In this document: piece after piece, positions 49,228-59,452 of the stretch
Layout: each line of letters begins with the position of its first letter
Numbering within the stretch: the stretch's first letter is position 1
Source: Cyanobacteria bacterium P01_F01_bin.150
Lineage (GTDB): Bacteria > Cyanobacteriota > Cyanobacteriia > CAKZMO01
Assembly: GCA_039189765.1 (NCBI GenBank)
Contig: JBCCYL010000010.1
Coordinates: forward strand, 50,577-114,576
Direction of reading: 5' to 3'
Length of the DNA: 64,000 bases
The notes under the pieces: generated by a model
The model's input: only the letters and a program-made list of their open reading frames with translations
The model's database searches: none
Told to the model about the DNA's origin: nothing
Program-made: the position numbers and the translations under genes

Positions 49228-50877
49228 TTAGGCAAAGTCTGACGCATTTAGAGACGCAATCCCCTCCACAATACCCAAGGATTGATTATCTGATTGAATC
49301 AGCACACCACCATTTTGTTGACTAAAGGAAAGCTGGCTAAACGATAGCCCTTTTATTAGGCGAATTCGGTCCTGTCCTCGTTCAAAATCCGTAATCATAT
49401 CGGTGCCCATATCCTTCGCCAGCACAAACCAATCCCGGCCGCCACCGCCCGTAAGGATATCGTCTCCTTCACCACCGTCCAGGGTATCGCGGCCACCCCC
49501 ACCATCAAGGCGATCGCTATCTCCACCCCCCCGGAGATAATCCTTACCACCGCCTCCAGTCAGCTCATCTTCGCCACTGCTGCCTAGGAGTCGATCCTTA
49601 CCGCCACCACCGAGGAGGATATCATTGCCTTCACCACCGTCTAGTCTATCCTTGCCCCCTTTGCCTTCCAGCCGATCATTGCCTTCACCACCGGACAGTT
49701 TATCGTTGCCCCTGCCGCCAATCAAGACATCATTACCGTCGTCTCCCACTAGAATATCGTTGGCCGCACCACCGTCCAGAGTGTCGTCACCGTCGCCGCC
49801 AATCAGGATGTCTCTTTTGGCAAATCCTTGGAAAAAATTAGCGACATCAGTGCCACTAAAAAGATTGCTAAAGTCATCACCAGTAGCGATCGCATCCAGC
49901 GGAAACAGTCCATCCAGCTCCAGGTCTGCGAGTTGATTGGATAGTATATCCGCGACCTTATCCAAAGACCCGTTAAACAAATCGATATCGCCACCTAAAT
50001 CCCCGAACCCCGTTAGCCCGTTTATGGCATTTTCAACCGGGTTCGTGAGAACGCTAAAGGGATCAATGGTATCGTTAAAGCGATTGATTAGCTCATCTAG
50101 CCCCGTGCTCTCTAAAATAGGGTCAATAATCGGGCTAAGGGTGCGGTTAACAATAAAGTCCAGCCCGTCAAATAAGAACTCAAATGGCCTTAAACCCGAG
50201 TTTAGCGACTGCAAGGGTTCGTTTAATGGTCCTAGAATAGTTTCGATATTTACGGCGACATCCAGGGCTTGATTAAAGGGGGCGATCGCGTCCACCAACA
50301 AATCCAGTGGCCCTTGAATCTGTTCACGGGTGCTAAGCAAGGTATCCGTGAGAATATCGATCGTGTCGGCAGTGGGTTCCAGCAGATCATTGGCTGCATT
50401 CACAATAGATTTAACCACCTGGGGTGTATTACTGGGAAAGGCATCATCAAGGGATTTAGCGCCCTCCTCATAAACGAGTAAATTTGCCACAGCGATGCTG
50501 ACCTTGCCCTCTGCATCTTCTACCTTGGATTCTAAGGAGCGTAGCTGGTTGCGAATCGGCTTAATTCGATTGTCTAGTCGTTCGGCATAGTCGGCGATCG
50601 TATCTGCGGAACTTTCTAACCGCTCAAAGGCAGGGGTCAGCGTTCGGACCGTCAGTCCCACAATTGGTGCAGTAGAGAGAAATTGGGAAATAGTTTCTAG
50701 ACTGCTGGCGGTTGTGGATAGTCCACGGGCTTTGGTGGCCAGCTCTTTGGCCGCATCCAAATCATCTCTGATTGCGTTAATCGCATCGTCTAGTGCATCT
50801 AAAGATGTTTCGGCATCTTGCCCATCTTGACGGAGGCGGCCAAGATTCTGAAGCAGCAACTCTGTCGATTGCATCAA
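49228..50877 (-). CDS. RTX-type calcium-binding protein with a long helical N-terminal domain
   Basis: Many GGxGxDxLx nonapeptides; C-terminal DMITDFERGQDRI; GAGGAG RBS. Confidence 0.9.
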   Translation of the reverse strand: MMQSTELLLQNLGRLRQDGQDAETSLDALDDAINAIRDDLDAAKELATKARGLSTTASSLETISQFLSTAPIVGLTVRTLTPAFERLESSADTIADYAERLDNRIKPIRNQLRSLESKVEDAEGKVSIAVANLLVYEEGAKSLDDAFPSNTPQVVKSIVNAANDLLEPTADTIDILTDTLLSTREQIQGPLDLLVDAIAPFNQALDVAVNIETILGPLNEPLQSLNSGLRPFEFLFDGLDFIVNRTLSPIIDPILESTGLDELINRFNDTIDPFSVLTNPVENAINGLTGFGDLGGDIDLFNGSLDKVADILSNQLADLELDGLFPLDAIATGDDFSNLFSGTDVANFFQGFAKRDILIGGDGDDTLDGGAANDILVGDDGNDVLIGGRGNDKLSGGEGNDRLEGKGGKDRLDGGEGNDILLGGGGKDRLLGSSGEDELTGGGGKDYLRGGGDSDRLDGGGGRDTLDGGEGDDILTGGGGRDWFVLAKDMGTDMITDFERGQDRIRLIKGLSFSQLSFSQQNGGVLIQSDNQSLGIVEGIASLNASDFA

Positions 50878-51100: not shown

Positions 51101-51149
51101 AACAGTAATGGGGCGCGCAGCCCCCACTACTCACCCAAAGTTGATACCC
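51101..51149 (+). repeat. Partial 80-bp element overlapping the 3' end of the Hsp70-like ORF
   Basis: AACAGTAATGGGGCGCGCAGCCCCCACTACTCACCCAAAGTTGATACCC; encodes VSTLGE-stop on the minus strand. Confidence 0.8.
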
Positions 51150-53526
51150 GTTTTTCATCCATTCTCACCAGCGGCTGAAATAATTTTTGGCGGGTACCTG
51201 CCGTCAATGCAGTGAGATACTGCTGTAGGATAGTCCACTGTTGACGGTTGGGGCGGTAAACCGTTTCTTTGGAGCGATTACTGCCGATGGGTGCAAATAG
51301 GGGTGCGACTAGCAGGCGATGGTAAGGAATATATCGTTGCGACAGCTCTGTTAACACATGATAATTAACGCCTTGAGGAACAAGCCCGGCTGGAATTTGG
51401 CCATCTAGTAGAGCCATTACACAGGGTTGGCTGATTGAGGGGCTGATGCCTCGACGTTTTAATAAACCCAAAATCTCTCGCAAAGTGATGGGTCGAGCTG
51501 GGAGAGTATGCCCCATCTGCATTAATAGATCATAATCACAGGGCCGATGCGTAACCCAGTCCATTAAGTGGGGATGCATCGGTAATGATGCCAATCCATA
51601 GGCGACTCGGCTACAGGTTGGAACAATATTATAATCTAGAGTCGGCGATAAATCGCCCTGGTGAACATCCTGAATAATAGTGGCCTGGGGAAATGTTTTT
51701 TGCAGCCACAACGTGATGACTCGAAATGACGTGGTGCCACCCGAGCAAATAACATGGCGGATTTCTTTTGCATCTATTCTCGCGCCTTCTAAAAGGGCGT
51801 TTACCTCTCTCTGGAGGCGCTGTATGTAGGGACGCAGGACTCGATTGCCCAGCTCTGCCTGGCTAATGCTCCATCTGTGGTGGGCGATCGCAAATTCTCC
51901 TGTTTTCTGGGCTTGGAGCATTAGCTTGAGACGACGAGCCTGCTGAATAAGTTCCGGTCCCAAAGGAGCCTGGTGTAGCTGATGCTGTAAGCGTAAACGG
52001 TTTTCACTGTCCGGTTCTCCAGCAGATGGCAAACACAAGTCCAGGCTTCCTAAAATTCTGATCATATCGGTTCCCAACTGCGTTAGGCGAGGATACAGAA
52101 GCTGGCTAATAATATCTTGGTCAAGGGCATCTCCCCCGTAGGCTAAACTCCGCTCTAGAAAACCATTGGGCTTTAGAACTGGGTCCTGAAGAGAGGCTAT
52201 AGAAGGGCGGTTAGGGTTGGGTTGAACGATATGGGCGATCGCTAATTCCGTTGTTACCGTTCCTCCATTTAATACCAGAGTGGGACCATCATAATTGGGA
52301 TCAGCATTAAGAGACGCTTGCTGAAAAACCTTTGGTAGGGTGATTGGCGTCCCATCGGCGCTGGGCAAACGGGAGAGAGTCGTGGCCAACCCATCCCCGA
52401 CCATCACTACCTGCTCAGCACGGGCAACCAATCGTGCACCCAATATTGCTTCTCTGATATTAAATCGATATGCTGCGGTCCATCCGCTCGGGTATCCAGC
52501 TACTACTCCACTTAAAGACTTTAATGCAGTTTGAGCACGATCTTTTGCCAATCCCCAAACCCGAGTTTCAACTGTCATTGAGACGGATAGGTTAGCACTA
52601 GGTGAGGAGTTGGAACGTGACGCATTTCCACGACCTCTAAGCAGAAAATTGGGAAGGGTAAAGGTTGAAGAAAGGGATGGATCTAGGGTAGAAAGAAGTA
52701 GCTGTAGGGCTTGGTAAAAACCACTTAAAGGCAGCGAATAGGATTGATTAAAGGTCAGAGAACGGCCGCCATGCAATATTTCTGGTTCCCACCGTTCCGC
52801 CTTAGTCGCGTAATGAGGAATAGTAATGTTCAAATAGTTTTTGCTGGACTGGAGTTGCAGCTGTTGCATCCCATCTTCAGTTTCAGCCGCCTGTACTCCG
52901 CCTGTTTGTTCATATAGCCCCCATTTAGGACTAAGGGTTGAGGGCTGCTCTTGTCCCTCAAAGTAGAGGAGGATGGCTGTGGGTAAACGAAACCATGGAT
53001 CTGAGGGGGAATCTGATGGTAACGGTGCTTGAGAGGACGATGGGATGGATGGATAGGGTAGACGGGATGAAGGTGGTGGAAAAACTAAATTAAATGGCCT
53101 ATATTGCCACGATATGGGATAAAGACAGTGCTGTTGTTGGTCTAACAACACTGCTGAAAGCCCTGTACTACCGATATCAATACCTAGATACCATCGACGC
53201 TTTTTTCTATTATTCTGACGCTTTGACTCAGATGGCGGTTCTTTAGGGGCAGACAACTTGGTAGATGCTGTTGCTCCATCTGGACGAGACAGTTTTTTTA
53301 GCTGCGACCGAAAATCATTGTCCGTTCTAGCATCCTTTGTAACAGACTTAGATCCAGACTCAGAGGCTGCATCAAATGGGCCCGTCCCATTGGTTTCTTC
53401 AGTAAAGTTGGATATGCCTGTTACAGCATCACCGAAGGCATTAGCCCCATCGGGCGGGTCTCTCTCTGGAGCTTGGGAGTCAGACCGTAGCTCTGGGGGT
53501 AAACGAAGCAGCTCCTCAATAATTAT
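51127..53526 (-). CDS. Divergent Hsp70/actin-fold domain ORF, open back to the A10 tract; probable second half of a frameshifted gene
   Basis: YLGIDIGSTG, GYPSGW...NIREAI, LNGGTVTTE, YGGDALD, VICSGGT, VAYGLA; 90 stop-free, ATG-free codons upstream of the track's TTG at 53256. Confidence 0.8.
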   Translation of the reverse strand: MIIEELLRLPPELRSDSQAPERDPPDGANAFGDAVTGISNFTEETNGTGPFDAASESGSKSVTKDARTDNDFRSQLKKLSRPDGATASTKLSAPKEPPSESKRQNNRKKRRWYLGIDIGSTGLSAVLLDQQQHCLYPISWQYRPFNLVFPPPSSRLPYPSIPSSSQAPLPSDSPSDPWFRLPTAILLYFEGQEQPSTLSPKWGLYEQTGGVQAAETEDGMQQLQLQSSKNYLNITIPHYATKAERWEPEILHGGRSLTFNQSYSLPLSGFYQALQLLLSTLDPSLSSTFTLPNFLLRGRGNASRSNSSPSANLSVSMTVETRVWGLAKDRAQTALKSLSGVVAGYPSGWTAAYRFNIREAILGARLVARAEQVVMVGDGLATTLSRLPSADGTPITLPKVFQQASLNADPNYDGPTLVLNGGTVTTELAIAHIVQPNPNRPSIASLQDPVLKPNGFLERSLAYGGDALDQDIISQLLYPRLTQLGTDMIRILGSLDLCLPSAGEPDSENRLRLQHQLHQAPLGPELIQQARRLKLMLQAQKTGEFAIAHHRWSISQAELGNRVLRPYIQRLQREVNALLEGARIDAKEIRHVICSGGTTSFRVITLWLQKTFPQATIIQDVHQGDLSPTLDYNIVPTCSRVAYGLASLPMHPHLMDWVTHRPCDYDLLMQMGHTLPARPITLREILGLLKRRGISPSISQPCVMALLDGQIPAGLVPQGVNYHVLTELSQRYIPYHRLLVAPLFAPIGSNRSKETVYRPNRQQWTILQQYLTALTAGTRQKLFQPLVRMDEKRVSTLGE

Positions 53527-56500
53527 TTTTTTTTTCTGAGTCAGGTAAGCTGTCTAACTCATCATTTTCCTCAAACCAGCCTTCAGGCAGGGAGGATAAG
53601 CTATCCTCTGGTGCCGAAGATCCAGGAGGTGCTGAAGCAGCCGAATTCTGACCACGCAGTAAATCGGCTAACGTCTTTGCTTCCTCTATTCCAGATAATG
53701 GACCGGATGCTGATGCAGACAATAAATCAGACGATGAATCGTCGGAAGAGGGTGCATTGGAGGAGGGTGCATTGGGATTGGGTGGGTCGTTGGATATCAA
53801 TTCTGCCAGCGTCCAAGATACAGGTGTCAAGTCGTCTCTAATATCGTTCAATTCACTGGATTCTTTCTCTCCTGATTCCAATGTCCCAAATAGACTATCG
53901 CCTTCTACTGTATTGCTTTCATTACTAACAATACTGCCATTACTGAACAAATCTTGAAGTGCTCCGATAGCATTTTCCTCCGGGTTATCCAGATTTGTCG
54001 GAGTCAGCCCCATGCCTCCAGACGCAGCAGCATTGCTGCTTAAACCACTATTATCAATTACTTGCGCATCTGCTACTTGTTCTTCTGTAAAAATGCCAAA
54101 GTCAGCTGATAGGGGTGGGGGTAATGGTGCGCTATCGGCAATGTCGCTACCGAGAGACTCAAGTTCGCCACTATAGGGTTCTAAAGTTTGATCATTTGAT
54201 AAATCATTGGCCAGCTCACTGATTGTCCTCGCATCCAACCGTAAATCCAACCTAGCTAAAAGATCGGCCTCACGTTGAGCGTCTTCATCGATTGGATTTG
54301 CGTTGATGCTGTTGTCTATTTCTAAAGTAGAATCAATATCCGCCAATAAATCAAATGAAGGTGAACGATAAGCGTCTTCGTTGATTATCTCTTCATCCCC
54401 AAGGCCACTGTCGGCATTTTCTTCATTATTGGAGGCAGAATCTGGCAAGGAAACAGGCGGTCTGGACGCGATGCCTGTTGAGTCAATTAGGTCGCTAAGA
54501 CTTTGAATCGTGTTAACAATAGCGGGGTTAGTGGTCGTTGCTTCAAGAGTAGAAAGTTGAGATTGGGCTAAGACATCCTCGATCTCTTCATCATTGCCTA
54601 AATCATCAATACGACTGAAGCTTGCCACGATATCTTCATCCCCATCTAGACTTCCAGGGGCAGAGCTATCAGGGATCGTCGCAGCAGTAAAAGGTGCATA
54701 AAAATCCTGATCGGGCTGATTATCGGTGACTTGCGGACTGTTATTTGGATAATTGTCCACAGAGGATGCAGATGACGAGTCTACCGGAGCATTGATTAAG
54801 AAAGAAATTCCTGCGTCGTCTGAGTTTATGGTTTCGAGGGTTGTTGAGGCAGCTGTTGAGGTGGCTATTGGGCTGGTTGAAGAAATGCGATCGCCACTTT
54901 CCTCAATTGATTCATCTAATGGTTCAGCTAAGAATTCTTCCCCCAATACATCATCATCGAGCAATTCTGAAGAGAGCTGCTGAAGCAGAAAATCAGAGCC
55001 ATCATCCGAATCACGAACCATATCATCGGTTTGGAGATCCGCTTGACTTACATCTGCAATCCCTCCCTCTATGTTGACAGAGACTCCAGACCATGAGTTT
55101 GCAGCTGAAACATCTGACAAAGTCAAATCATCACCAAATATGCCATCATTTGTTTGCTCCGCAAGCATGGAAAAATCAGGATTAGGGGAGTCACTTAATA
55201 AAGGATGATTTGCAATAGCTTGCTCTGGGTCATCAATTCCCAGTAGTTCTGATGAAAAGGTAGATTGACGCTGTTCTTCCTGAGATGGGCTAATAGCGTC
55301 TATAAATCGCTCCACATCCGTATCATCTTTATCTAAGCGAATATTCAAAACTGGATCTAAAGGCGTATCCAACTCTAACCCCGACGATAAATTAATTGGA
55401 TCCTGGCTAAACTGGTCAGCCAGCTCAGATTCCAGTTGTCGAATAGCCTTTATGTCCTCATCATCCCCATCGTCTCCATCACTGGTTGATGAGAAACTGT
55501 CTCTATTGCTGACGGATGCAGAAGCAGCCTCTATCGGTACATCAGCTAACTCAAGATTATCTAGACCAAACCCTAAGTCTAAAGTATCAAGGGCTTCTAC
55601 CGCATCAATTGTATTGTTCTCTAGCTGGTCGATGATTTGGTCGAGCATCTGAGTTGCTGCCGGGTCAGGCTGCTGCTCAGCCTTAACGACCGACCCAATA
55701 TCTCCATAAGGCTGGGCAGAGGTAATTGGCGATTGTGTTGGTGATTGTATAGAAGACGATGCTCCAGAGTTCACATCCTCATTCACATCCTCATTCACAT
55801 CCGCCAATAATGAAGGCTGGAGGCCGACAAATGTATCGACTTCTTCTACTGTGTCTTCCAATAGTTGGTCTAGATAAGCAGGCGCAATTTTATCATCTGG
55901 CCCTGACGAGAATGGTGGCTCTGACGAGAATTGGTTCTCCTCATTTGTTGCCCTTTGTTCAAAGGCTGGTATCACATCTTCAGTTGGCAATTCTAAATTT
56001 GGGGACGTTGCCGGACGCAAATGCAGGGATGCTTCTTGCCCTAATTGTCCAGCTAGGCGATTGACAAAGGCCGTAAACATCGCTTCTCCCTGTTGCCCCA
56101 AGCCATGCATTTTGCGAAGACTATCCTCTAAAGAATCCTGGTAGGTATCTACGCTGGTCTGTAGGGATTCGAACAGAACCTTGAGAGTGGAATCTAACTG
56201 TACGACTTGTTCACTGTCAGAGGAGGCTAGAGGTATGGCTGACGTCCCACTTAAGCTCATCATGGTCTGAGCAACTTGCTGGGTTAGCTGCTCTTGTAAG
56301 CGCCCCATTAAAGCGTGAAGAAAACCGTTGATCATTTGCTGTTGATCGGTCTGCTGGGCCAGGATAAACTGCTGACGTTGTTGCTGAAGCTGCTGAACCT
56401 CTGTCGCTAAATAACTCCGTTCTTGTTGCAGCCGAGTGATTTCTTCCCGTAAGGGCTGCATCGTGTTCATCCGCAAATAGGCCATCTCTTGAACAATGGA

Positions 56501-56764
56501 CTGGAGCACTTGCTGGGCAGACTCAGCCAAGGCAGGGGCCGGTGCTTGCCAGTCATTGCCCAAAGGAAATTGAGAGACGTCTGTGACTGCTTGAGAAGGC
56601 GATTGATCAGTAGTCTGAGATTTCTGGAGTTGAGCCAATTGCTGACGGGCTTGCTCCAGTATCTGATATTCACCCGTTTTTCCCGAATCCGATGGAGAAG
56701 CATCAGAAAGTATTGAGCTAATTTGCTCAACGAGTGATTGGATACGATCGCTTTGAGAAGTCAC
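53516..56764 (-). CDS. Coiled-coil protein with a very long Asp/Glu/Ser-rich disordered region
   Basis: Q-rich heptads in the N-terminal ~250 aa; acidic low-complexity remainder; GTG 56764 preceded by AGGGG; ends EKKNNY just after A10. Confidence 0.85.
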   Translation of the reverse strand: MTSQSDRIQSLVEQISSILSDASPSDSGKTGEYQILEQARQQLAQLQKSQTTDQSPSQAVTDVSQFPLGNDWQAPAPALAESAQQVLQSIVQEMAYLRMNTMQPLREEITRLQQERSYLATEVQQLQQQRQQFILAQQTDQQQMINGFLHALMGRLQEQLTQQVAQTMMSLSGTSAIPLASSDSEQVVQLDSTLKVLFESLQTSVDTYQDSLEDSLRKMHGLGQQGEAMFTAFVNRLAGQLGQEASLHLRPATSPNLELPTEDVIPAFEQRATNEENQFSSEPPFSSGPDDKIAPAYLDQLLEDTVEEVDTFVGLQPSLLADVNEDVNEDVNSGASSSIQSPTQSPITSAQPYGDIGSVVKAEQQPDPAATQMLDQIIDQLENNTIDAVEALDTLDLGFGLDNLELADVPIEAASASVSNRDSFSSTSDGDDGDDEDIKAIRQLESELADQFSQDPINLSSGLELDTPLDPVLNIRLDKDDTDVERFIDAISPSQEEQRQSTFSSELLGIDDPEQAIANHPLLSDSPNPDFSMLAEQTNDGIFGDDLTLSDVSAANSWSGVSVNIEGGIADVSQADLQTDDMVRDSDDGSDFLLQQLSSELLDDDVLGEEFLAEPLDESIEESGDRISSTSPIATSTAASTTLETINSDDAGISFLINAPVDSSSASSVDNYPNNSPQVTDNQPDQDFYAPFTAATIPDSSAPGSLDGDEDIVASFSRIDDLGNDEEIEDVLAQSQLSTLEATTTNPAIVNTIQSLSDLIDSTGIASRPPVSLPDSASNNEENADSGLGDEEIINEDAYRSPSFDLLADIDSTLEIDNSINANPIDEDAQREADLLARLDLRLDARTISELANDLSNDQTLEPYSGELESLGSDIADSAPLPPPLSADFGIFTEEQVADAQVIDNSGLSSNAAASGGMGLTPTNLDNPEENAIGALQDLFSNGSIVSNESNTVEGDSLFGTLESGEKESSELNDIRDDLTPVSWTLAELISNDPPNPNAPSSNAPSSDDSSSDLLSASASGPLSGIEEAKTLADLLRGQNSAASAPPGSSAPEDSLSSLPEGWFEENDELDSLPDSEKKNNY
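55772..55803. repeat. In-frame 12-bp tandem repeat (DVNE)
   Basis: About 2.7 copies of TCACATCCTCAT. Confidence 0.8.
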
Positions 56765-56932
56765 AATAGACCCCCTGAATAGGAACAATTCTGAGCGCAG
56801 TTAAAACGTCACTAAGATAGCTTAATTTAACCTCAGACGTGTCTAATCCTATCCATTCCCTTGACGAATTACGCAATTTCTTAAGAATCAGAGATAATTG
56901 GGCAGCGCTTTTATTGTGTTTCAAGGAAATTT

Positions 56933-57012
56933 GGGTATCAACTTTTAGGCGGGAGGAGTGGGCATGTCGTGCCCACTCCTCCGTTAATTTTTTTCGTCTT
57001 AAAGCGAAACCC
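56933..57012 (-). repeat. Full 80-bp element; supplies the stop codon of the GGDEF-EAL gene
   Basis: GGGTATCAACTTTTAGGCG...GGAGGAGTGGGCA/TGCCCACTCCTCC...CTTAAAGCGAAACCC. Confidence 0.9.
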
Positions 57013-59452
57013 CAGTTGATTCTAAAAGCTGTAGATACTCTCCTGACCAGCTTTTTTTCAGTAACTCCGTGGCAGGCCCTTGGGATAAAGGTTTGGCAAA
57101 GAAATACCCTTGACCATAATCACATTTGAGTAGTCTCAACTGAGCAAGATGCTTTTTCGTTTCAATACCCTCTGCTACCACATCCATGCCTAAATTCCAG
57201 GCCAAGGAGAGAATTGTGCGGACTAGCTCAATTTTTTCCACGTCTGTGTCCAAGCTGCGGATAAAGGACCGATCAATTTTTAAGGTGTCTACAGAAAATC
57301 GATGTAAATATCCTAAAGATGAATACCCTGTGCCAAAGTCATCAATGGCAAATTTTACGCCCAGTTCCTTCAATTCATCAATCATGACAGTGGCGGAATT
57401 TGCATGCCCCATTAGGATACTCTCAGTAATCTCAAGCTTTAGATATTGGGGTGGTAGTTGATTTTCATGTAACGTTTGGCGAATTTTGTCGGCAAGATTG
57501 GGTTGAGAAAACTGTTTCGCAGATAAATTAACGCTAATGATAAGAGGCGTTTTTGCTGGGAATTGTTTATGCCATTGGTGGGTTTGCTGGCAGGCTTCTT
57601 CCAATACCCATTGTCCTAGCGCTTTGATAAAGCCTGTTTCCTCTGCAATGGGTATAAATTCGCCAGGAGAAACCAACCCTTTTTCAGGATGTCGCCACCG
57701 CACTAATGCTTCAAATCCAAACAGTAATCGATTGCGTAGGGAGAGAATAGGCTGATAATGGAGTTCAAATTCATCTCTTTCCAGTGCTTTGCGTAAGTCA
57801 GATTCCATTTCTAATCGACTGACTGCTTTTGCATACATATCTGGTGTAAACACTCGATAGCATGACTTTCCGGCTTCTTTAGCGCGATACATTGCCGTAT
57901 CGGCATTGCGAAGCAGAACCTCTCCACTTGCAATATCTGATTGCATTAATGCAATCCCAATGCTGACCCCTGTAAACACTTCGTGCCCATGTAGGTTGAA
58001 TGGACGGGTTAAATCCTGACGCATGCGCTCAGCTATGACCAGTACGGCATCCGGTGATTTCATCTGGTCCAGTAAGATCGCAAACTCATCCCCTCCCAGG
58101 CGAGCAATAAGGTCCGTATCTCGAATGCATCTGGAAAGTCGGGCTGCCACCTCCACCAGCAGTGAGTCTCCCATAGAGTGGCCAAGACTATCATTAACAA
58201 ACTTAAAACCATCTAGATCAATAAAAAAGACGCCACAGGTTTTTTCTGTTGTTCTCTGAGTACGATATTTTTTAACCGTCCCTTCCAGCTTGCGCATAAA
58301 TAAAGAACGATTTGGGAGTCCTGTCAATGAATCGTGGAAGGCATTATAAATAAGACGCTGTTCAATTTCCTGTTTTTCGGTAACATCTTGGGCCATGGAA
58401 GTAATACCTATTACCTCTCCTGCATCATTGAGGATTGGCGTATGGTACCACTCACATAAAATTCTTTCGCCAGCTTGGGTAATATTTTCGTTAGCGTTAT
58501 GGGATGTCTCTTTCGTGACCAAAAGACGATGCCATAGTTCATTCATCAACGCTACATTCACGCTAGGAACAATCAGTTCGGTCACATGATGTTCTAGTGC
58601 GTCGGTTCTTGAATACCCAAAGATGGACGTCGCAGCTCGATTCCATGAGCAGACTTTAAAGTTTGCATCCCACTCAATCATTGCTATGGGCGTATGCTCA
58701 AAGAAATAGTGGTGACGTTGTTGAGTAATATTCTGTAGAATTTGTTGATTCTGATGCTTTGTTATGTCCTGGATCGTACATACGATATGAGTAATGGAAC
58801 CTTCCAAGGACAATTGAGGCTGGGCGCTTATCCAAACCCAACATATGCTTTCATGGGCTGAAATCCAGTTTTTTTCTTTAATTAGATCAGTACTACCTAT
58901 TCCTAATGTAATGTTTTTGGCTGGTTGACCTGTTTGAATTGCCTGATATACAGGATGATCTTCTGCGGGACAACACTCCCCATTAGGATAAAACCACTGT
59001 ACATTTTCACTAAAAGATGAATGACCTTGTAGTTGATGGGTTGTTAGTTTTAGTAAGTGAATGGCTTCAGGGTTCGCTAGTAAAATCCGGTTATCAGGGT
59101 TCAACAATACAGCACCATATGGCAAGCCTAATAATAAAATCTTTAAATTTTCTAGACTTATTTTAGAAGATGATAAATCAGTTTCTCTGCTCTCATTTTC
59201 TTGTTTCTTATAGTGGAATTTGTTGGATTGATTAATTAATGAGAATAAAGTTCTAGTGTGAGGAACCTGTGGGCGATAATTCTTTACTTTTTTCCACCAG
59301 TATGCGCTTATCCCCAAGCTGGCGATCAGACTTAACCATAGACCTGTAGATTGTTCTCCTTTTGTCAGGGAAAGCAAGGAACTATGATTTATTCCTTCAA
59401 GAGGAGAGTTAATAATTGATAGAATGGGATGAAAGATAAAGGGGCTAATCAT
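56999..59452 (-). CDS. TM-PAS-PAS-GGDEF-EAL c-di-GMP enzyme
   Basis: HDSLTGLPNR, RDTD I-site, GGDEF, FEALVRW, DDFGTGYSS, GQGY. Confidence 0.95.
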   Translation of the reverse strand: MISPFIFHPILSIINSPLEGINHSSLLSLTKGEQSTGLWLSLIASLGISAYWWKKVKNYRPQVPHTRTLFSLINQSNKFHYKKQENESRETDLSSSKISLENLKILLLGLPYGAVLLNPDNRILLANPEAIHLLKLTTHQLQGHSSFSENVQWFYPNGECCPAEDHPVYQAIQTGQPAKNITLGIGSTDLIKEKNWISAHESICWVWISAQPQLSLEGSITHIVCTIQDITKHQNQQILQNITQQRHHYFFEHTPIAMIEWDANFKVCSWNRAATSIFGYSRTDALEHHVTELIVPSVNVALMNELWHRLLVTKETSHNANENITQAGERILCEWYHTPILNDAGEVIGITSMAQDVTEKQEIEQRLIYNAFHDSLTGLPNRSLFMRKLEGTVKKYRTQRTTEKTCGVFFIDLDGFKFVNDSLGHSMGDSLLVEVAARLSRCIRDTDLIARLGGDEFAILLDQMKSPDAVLVIAERMRQDLTRPFNLHGHEVFTGVSIGIALMQSDIASGEVLLRNADTAMYRAKEAGKSCYRVFTPDMYAKAVSRLEMESDLRKALERDEFELHYQPILSLRNRLLFGFEALVRWRHPEKGLVSPGEFIPIAEETGFIKALGQWVLEEACQQTHQWHKQFPAKTPLIISVNLSAKQFSQPNLADKIRQTLHENQLPPQYLKLEITESILMGHANSATVMIDELKELGVKFAIDDFGTGYSSLGYLHRFSVDTLKIDRSFIRSLDTDVEKIELVRTILSLAWNLGMDVVAEGIETKKHLAQLRLLKCDYGQGYFFAKPLSQGPATELLKKSWSGEYLQLLESTGVSL

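Follow-up and report, generated by a model that had tools for sequence, protein, structure and literature searches.

Does a run of ten adenines stand between two cyanobacterial genes, or does it interrupt a single one? The question is raised by a locus on the minus strand (positions 51127 to 56764) of a stretch of 64,000 nucleotides (nt) from Cyanobacteria bacterium P01_F01_bin.150 (GenBank assembly GCA_039189765.1, contig JBCCYL010000010.1, positions 50,577 to 114,576 of the forward strand), hereafter called the window. At this locus a first open reading frame (ORF1), which encodes a coiled coil and an acidic linker, ends just past the run (A10), and a second one (ORF2), which encodes an ATPase domain of the Hsp70/actin fold (ASKHA), follows in the +1 frame. 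Gene callers split the locus into two genes. We find that ORF1 and ORF2 almost certainly form one cyanobacterial gene that is interrupted by a conserved A10. This gene is probably subject to programmed slippage, mainly by RNA polymerase, which would give a short scaffold and a long fusion bearing the ATPase. From its 5' end, this gene would encode an N-terminal coiled coil and a long acidic linker, followed past the A10 by a short linker and the Hsp70-like ATPase domain.

The junction and the two frames

The following features define the junction, all on the minus strand (aa, amino acids).

53516..56764, minus strand: ORF1, the zero frame, from GTG at 56764 to TGA at 53518-53516 (1082 aa, P0094)
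53554..53556, minus strand: TAG that shuts the +1 frame upstream, so that the +1 frame is open from 18 nt 5' of the run
53526..53535, minus strand: A10 run, the proposed slippage site, conserved in relatives
53523..53525, minus strand: TAA immediately 3' of the A10, which shuts the -1 frame
53194..53525, minus strand: +1-frame linker of about 110 codons from the run to the ATPase domain, with no ATG and no GTG
53254..53256, minus strand: TTG, candidate independent start of ORF2 and the sole common start codon between the run and the phosphate-1 motif
53149..53151, minus strand: GTG start of the stored ORF2 gene call (P0002, 674 aa), downstream of the phosphate-1 motif
51127..53193, minus strand: Hsp70/actin-fold (ASKHA) ATPase domain from WYLGIDIGSTG, with a helical region at its C-terminal side and the stop codon at 51129-51127

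The ending of ORF1 (C-terminus SEKKNNY), the position of the A10, the TAG and the stop-free +1 frame were verified at every point as given in an original prediction made from the sequence of the window. The two frames were said to overlap by less than 40 nt around the A10, and the measured overlap of ORF1 and the +1 frame is 38 nt, with the A10 inside it. After the TAG at 53556-53554 the +1 frame runs for 808 codons without a stop to position 51127. Past the A10, the other stops are met at 0 nt (TAA) and 7 nt (TGA). The prediction had also claimed that neither ATG nor GTG precedes the TTG, which holds for all 110 codons from the run to the phosphate-1 motif (WYLGIDIGSTG); the TTG at 53256 is 21 codons ahead of this motif. 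For ORF1 itself, a TTG at 56788 is found further upstream of the GTG start at 56764. By arithmetic from the coordinates, removal of one A from the A10 gives a protein of 1878 aa and addition of two As one of 1879 aa, in line with the single protein of about 1880 aa that had been foreseen. The stored gene call P0002 starts downstream of the phosphate-1 motif and therefore truncates the ATPase fold.

Conservation of the run across cyanobacteria

Taken alone, an A10 in this genome is not beyond chance, and its significance comes from its conservation in the sequences of other species. In the 10.6-Mb source assembly there are 192 A/T runs of at least 9, and 110 of at least 10 where about 28 are expected with independent bases. 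Many of the A/T runs of this assembly lie within 100 nt of contig ends; these reach lengths of up to 32 and resemble edges of the assembly.

Of 41 related genomes, 31 contain the ATPase domain, as do 201 of the 401 genomes drawn from across the class. All three other species of the genus, with an ATPase domain 51% identical to that of the window, have exactly A10, then TAA, and the continuation in the +1 frame; their ORF1 ends in QKKNNG or QKKNNP, and the flanking DNA differs. Four more distant split genes carry the ATPase domain in the -1 frame, with A10 in three of them and A9 in one. A run of A9-A11 was found at the junction in all of 20 further loci, which had been picked for a short open frame. 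Among five long 'fused' genes, three (G032, G040 and G028) have an in-frame A10 at the same boundary, and the remaining two (G024 and G020) lack the run, KK being absent from the whole of their proteins. Of 326 relatives among genome contigs, the best 80 comprised 34 with A9-A11, 35 fusions without a run and 11 that were unresolved at first pass. By record title, the cultured strains with the run include Stenomitos frigidus ULC18, Leptolyngbya sp. FACHB-321 and Coleofasciculus sp. H7-2. The long proteins P0034, P0036, P0037 and P0083 match both the ORF1 N-terminus and ORF2.

The main survey covered 141 species-representative genomes, each with its most informative locus; they were taken from the 201 genomes with a match, the other 60 having mostly weak matches. 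The loci were distributed as follows.

80 of 141 genomes: A9-A11 run (65 A10, 8 A9 and 7 A11), in 13 family codes
40 of 141 genomes: run with the ATPase domain in the -1 frame
23 of 141 genomes: run with the ATPase domain in frame (fusion)
17 of 141 genomes: run with the ATPase domain in the +1 frame, the window included
52 of 141 genomes: fusion without a run
9 of 141 genomes: unresolved or other, one doubtful A8 included

The gene is thus split at an A9-A11 run in 57 of the 141 genomes, 40 times towards the -1 and 17 times towards the +1 frame. The original prediction had asked whether orthologs break at a poly-A or are fused; both were found, and the run is kept in the split genes as well as in the 23 in-frame fusions.

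We also pooled and de-duplicated the loci into a set of 173 rows, from which truncated or short domains were dropped and which is enriched for split forms by the choice of loci. The run was present in 93 of the 173 rows (77 A10, 10 A9 and 6 A11), the others being 71 fusions without a run and 9 of other kinds. The 77 A10 rows are spread over all three frame relations (34, 27 and 16). Trees of the ATPase domain were made with FastTree only and have some long branches; on the tree of the pooled set the frame relation changed at least 18 times and run presence at least 8 times, and on a first tree of 102 rows the corresponding numbers were at least 11 and at least 4. Close pairs with the same A10 and a different frame are L059 and L064, L033 and L035, and L091 as compared to L047. 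Here the frame differences arise in the flanks, with an extra base beside the run in L059 as compared to L064, and one G fewer after the run in L091. Such differences between very close relatives may reflect true evolutionary change or else isolated errors in the bins. In several fusions without a run (L153, L171, L196 and L208, from family code f32 and others) interrupted A-rich stretches are found 24-40 codons before the ATPase motif, and these remnants suggest that the run was lost.

Evidence for recoding at the run

As the run is kept in split and fused genes alike and in all three frames, sequencing error is effectively excluded and recoding is favored. The encoded protein does not explain a pure A run, since Lys makes up only 1.2% of 87,872 codons and AAA and AAG are used almost equally outside the run (578:519). 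The frames that do not continue were found to stop soon after it. In 61 loci their stops come at a median of 7 nt past the run, as compared to a background of 47 nt at random positions in the same genes, and 82 of 122 such frames have a stop within 12 nt as compared to 20% in the background. Likewise, 12 of 14 in-frame genes have a stop within 12 nt in one or both of the alternative frames.

The region between the run and the phosphate-1 motif was inspected for start codons in 47 split loci. It has no ATG in 26 of them, and in 7 it has none of ATG, GTG and TTG. From the run onward the ORF2 frame has no stop, even across linkers of up to about 300 codons (L030 and L040). No sequence consensus was found in the flanks of the run across the loci compared.

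In the window and in the family, the site thus combines an A run of at least 9, conservation beyond the need of the protein, an unconserved direction of the shift and nearby stops, as looked for in a slippage site. An unconserved frameshift direction is described in PMC3711429 as a sign of transcriptional realignment. Judged by comparison of the orthologous sequences, the run is conserved and very probably a real recoding site. The same pattern supports the original proposal of slippage or a programmed frameshift, by which a scaffold and a scaffold-ATPase isoform may be made.

Slippage as the probable source of two isoforms

According to the explanation that we favor, RNA polymerase would slip on the A10 and give mRNAs with a varying number of As. 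From the unslipped A10 mRNA of the window the 1082-aa scaffold of coiled coil and acidic linker would be made alone, and an A11 mRNA would give nearly the same scaffold, ending in EKKK at the TAA. An A9 or A12 mRNA would bring the ATPase domain in frame and give the fusion of 1878 or 1879 aa, respectively. Short and long isoforms, both with the N-terminal coiled coil, would thus always occur side by side in the cell. Slippage of RNA polymerase is the simplest common mechanism because the -1 ribosomal route is closed in the window. From these data we infer that slippage takes place, mainly during transcription, and that there is a need for both isoforms.

Several points weigh against this explanation. 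Plain fusions without a run are common, with 52 of the 141 genomes and 71 of the 173 pooled rows, and together with the lineages that have two genes they indicate that slippage isoforms are not indispensable to the family. The ratio of short to long isoform is expected to be inverted between split and in-frame lineages, which would mean either that the ratio has no critical importance or that slippage takes place at a frequency close to one half. In the window, the long form would need one A to be lost or two to be gained, and these events may be rarer than the gain of one A. The TTG 21 codons before the ATPase motif may leave room for independent initiation, and ribosomal -1 frameshifting may contribute in the -1 class. 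A conserved stimulator was also missing from the RNA upstream of the run, as folding of 40-mers from 59 loci gave a mean z of 0.00 as compared to -0.13 in the control, and the local RNA fold in the window was unremarkable (z -0.73). An 8-bp hairpin of the window ends 1 nt 5' of the run (z -1.65) and is not conserved.

A wider and more tentative idea is that the A10 is of ancient origin and serves to dose the isoforms in a large part of the cyanobacteria, with frame flips and loss of the run resetting the ratio of scaffold to ATPase as an evolvable rheostat; we regard this as possible but rather doubtful. Slippage would supply all three frames, so that lineages could flip the downstream frame without touching either domain, and the ratio would be tuned for a self-assembling ATPase machine.

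Alternative explanations

Ribosomes can slide on poly-A. The recoding could accordingly be real but translational, with ribosomes that shift or slide on the Lys-encoding run while the mRNA stays A10; the shift would be +1 or -2 in the window and -1 in most relatives. We consider this unlikely, even if it survives better than the other alternatives. Poly-A sites can act in transcription or in translation according to PMC3711429, and most runs of the -1 class are phased GAA AAA AAA AAG, which contains the classic A_AAA_AAG heptamer. A dnaX-type heptamer with a continuing -1 frame is thus present in many relatives of this class. In the window and in its genus, however, the -1 frame is closed by the TAA after the run, and an efficient -1 route would be useless there. 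Furthermore, the same A10 accompanies each of the three frame relations, a heptamer would require fewer As, and neither an element resembling a Shine-Dalgarno (SD) sequence nor a hairpin is conserved across the loci compared.

It is less likely again that ORF1 and ORF2 are two separate genes, where ORF2 starts at the TTG at 53256 or through reinitiation, and where the run persists for some other reason, such as a Lys tail or a pause in translation as ORF1 ends. Truly separate genes do exist in the family. In L090 (3700-8563), L158 and L189 a gap of about 90-130 nt without an A run separates the two, and an ATG is found ahead of the ATPase motif by 5 or 16 codons in two of these lineages (L158 and L090); in L109 the scaffold and ATPase genes overlap by about 60 nt. 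The lineages with separate genes are a Coleofasciculaceae record and family code f27. A consistent arrangement of two genes with a conserved start of their own and no A-tract, which would have spoken against the original prediction, is thus limited to few lineages (L090, L158 and L189). In the window itself the TTG 21 codons ahead of the ATPase motif and the annotation of two genes by the gene callers agree with separate genes, but the stored ORF2 call is forced to start inside the fold. Among the 47 split loci, a common start codon before the motif is missing from 7 and an ATG from 26, and the ORF2 frame is open all the way from the run, also where the linker is longest. The run is found inside an uninterrupted fusion in 23 of the 141 genomes, and codon usage gives no explanation for a pure A run.

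In phase variation the length of the run would change in the DNA by replication slippage, and this would heritably toggle the ATPase fusion in subpopulations. A/T runs of such length are described as mutable in DNA (PMC3711429), and variants with A9 or A11 exist (16 of 93). However, the length of the run is nearly invariant, with A10 in 77 of 93, and does not track the frame; the frames differ through changes in the flanks, as in L059 and L064 and in L091. The Logan assembly of sequencing run X1 has the A10 too and shows no difference over positions 53300-53800 at a word depth of 41, although this comparison rests on contigs, in which rare variants are dropped and heterogeneity in run length is invisible. 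Run X1 is probably the source sample, and hence its Logan assembly is not independent. A search for sequencing runs that contain this stretch listed this one DNA run and no RNA run; two other runs of the same study contained next to no words of it, and a pattern search of metagenome contigs for close relatives gave 261 matches with no relative among them. Altogether we consider phase variation quite improbable.

A homopolymer error in sequencing or assembly, or a recently broken pseudogene, can be dismissed as extremely improbable. Such an error, held to be the main alternative in the original prediction, is what most often lies behind a frameshift at a homopolymer when the sequence is a metagenome bin, and the source assembly consists of 350 contigs with 4.7% contamination. 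However, the same A10 and the same +1 arrangement are found in all three other species of the genus, and 80 of 141 genomes, which come from many assemblies (mostly with Illumina-style contig names), have an A9-A11 run. A wrong length would yield A9 or A11 rather than A10 with shifted flanks, and downstream of the run the frame stays intact for about 800 codons.

Comparison with known recoding sites

In the tssM genes of type VI secretion an A run is likewise located at a domain boundary, slippage of RNA polymerase on it leads to a short and a long variant, and there is the same duality of split and in-frame genes as in the cyanobacterial family. As reported in PMC4256274, tssM1 of Citrobacter rodentium has an A11 with the continuation in the +1 frame, about 20% frameshifting and mRNAs with 10-15 As, and recoding leads to the long form; the reported slippage event is the gain of one A. 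In tssM3 of Yersinia pseudotuberculosis the gene is in frame and recoding leads to the short form (PMC4256274). However, tssM belongs to an unrelated protein family, and the cyanobacterial site is far wider in its distribution (13 family codes) and occurs in all three frames. In reporters described in PMC3711429 frameshifting grows with the length of the run, from 10% for A7 and 40% for A9 to 63% for A11.

The dnaX gene gives two products, tau and gamma, which share their N-terminal part and arise from a poly-A run that is often A10, and in some species the long form is made only through the shift. Transcriptional slippage on an A9 in Thermus thermophilus and two-ORF dnaX genes with A10 are both described in PMC3711429. 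In contrast to the cyanobacterial gene, dnaX has a known and essential function in replication, and in E. coli its -1 frameshift is ribosomal and involves an SD-like element and a hairpin, neither of which is conserved in the cyanobacterial family. In the orfA-orfB transposase genes of insertion sequences (IS) a poly-A also joins two frames, and the unconserved direction was read as transcriptional realignment (PMC3711429). The cyanobacterial gene, however, is a single-copy chromosomal gene, with one match in the source assembly and without transposase features.

No paper on this gene or site was found in a full-text literature search. The main text of PMC3711429 holds no such cyanobacterial cluster and two of its supplements have no cyanobacterial genus names; a GeneTack cluster may exist in the third. 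Conserved non-mobile programmed slippage is scarce in bacterial chromosomes, with dnaX, tssM and a handful more. With many cyanobacterial families, three frame arrangements and one invariant run, the present gene offers a natural experiment on the evolution of slippage sites and isoform ratios. It also represents a large and widespread cyanobacterial protein family that annotation pipelines leave labelled as hypothetical, while they split the gene in two and mis-start its ATPase half.

The ATPase domain

ORF2 matched no family of Pfam. Its match to the HscA model of NCBIfam (E 7e-7, 28.1 bits) is far under the cut-off of 708.55, and a match to Sse1 was found at E 6.7e-4. The structure model of ORF2 had a predicted local distance difference test (pLDDT) score of 74 and a predicted template modelling score (pTM) of 0.79, and it was built from P0002, which lacks the first (phosphate-1) motif. 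The top PDB matches of this model were the nucleotide-binding domains of DnaK/Hsp70 (Foldseek E 3.6e-11, probability 1.0, about 330-345 columns), which supports the claim of a C-terminal domain of the Hsp70/actin fold. The phosphate-1 motif (W.LGiD.Gttg) and an adenosine-type motif, CxGG(T/A)S, are conserved in 102 sequences, and from these motifs ORF2 is predicted to bind or hydrolyze ATP.

ORF2 thus resembles the nucleotide-binding domain of Hsp70/DnaK in the modelled fold and in both motifs. It differs from Hsp70/DnaK in that it belongs to no Pfam family and stays under the HscA cut-off, has long insertions and a C-terminal part that is helical, and no Hsp70 substrate-binding domain was detected in it. 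On the basis of the model, ORF2 is an orphan ATPase of the predicted ASKHA fold and not a canonical Hsp70. A Pro-rich motif (SPPPGYRL.MP..P.RP) is present in the +1-frame linker, just 5' of the ATPase domain, in the three other species of the genus (L002, L003 and L004), and not in the window.

The coiled coil and the acidic linker

ORF1 consists of two parts.

56015..56764, minus strand: N-terminal all-helical (coiled-coil) domain, about aa 1-250, from tblastn, alignment A2 and the structure model
53536..56014, minus strand: acidic linker, long and of low complexity, poor in Lys and without a Pfam family

The N-terminal domain opens the protein in split and fused relatives alike, and tblastn from query residue 1 placed it upstream of the ATPase domain in 131 loci. 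In alignment A2 its mean column identity is 41%, and helices are predicted by the structure model at residues 2-21, 30-53, 78-173 and 182-249. The profile matches of this domain were weak, scattered and generic (HALZ in 5 of 18 members, ZapB and Max zipper), and ORF1 as a whole matched no family in Pfam or NCBIfam. In the ESM Atlas, ORF1 was linked to unnamed cyanobacterial clusters and to one 'hybrid sensor kinase' cluster at 0.91, which we treated as uninformative. A modelled pair of N-terminal domains (aa 1-270 of A2) scored 0.01 as compared to a mark of 0.42, a value that says nothing either way on self-association.

Gene neighborhood

Two further elements, both from a consensus scan only, border the locus.

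51104..51131, minus strand: terminator-like hairpin directly 3' of the ORF2 stop
56952..56982, no strand: 14-bp palindromic hairpin with 9 GC pairs, between the GGDEF-EAL gene and ORF1

The palindrome at 56952-56982 is likely a bidirectional terminator. Because it separates ORF1 from the upstream GGDEF-EAL gene, ORF1 and ORF2 look like a transcription unit of their own. The gene neighborhood was not conserved, even within the genus (three other species compared), and therefore gives no clue to function. Nothing was found that speaks for or against the cytoskeletal or polarity role raised in the original prediction.

The upstream gene (56999-59452, minus strand) encodes a PAS-GGDEF-EAL cyclic-di-GMP protein (EAL E 3e-78, GGDEF E 7e-46). 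The downstream gene (49228-50877, minus strand) encodes a protein of 549 aa with RTX calcium-binding nonapeptide repeats (PF00353, E 8e-39) at about aa 356-537, and its N-terminal part has weak matches of the coiled-coil type.

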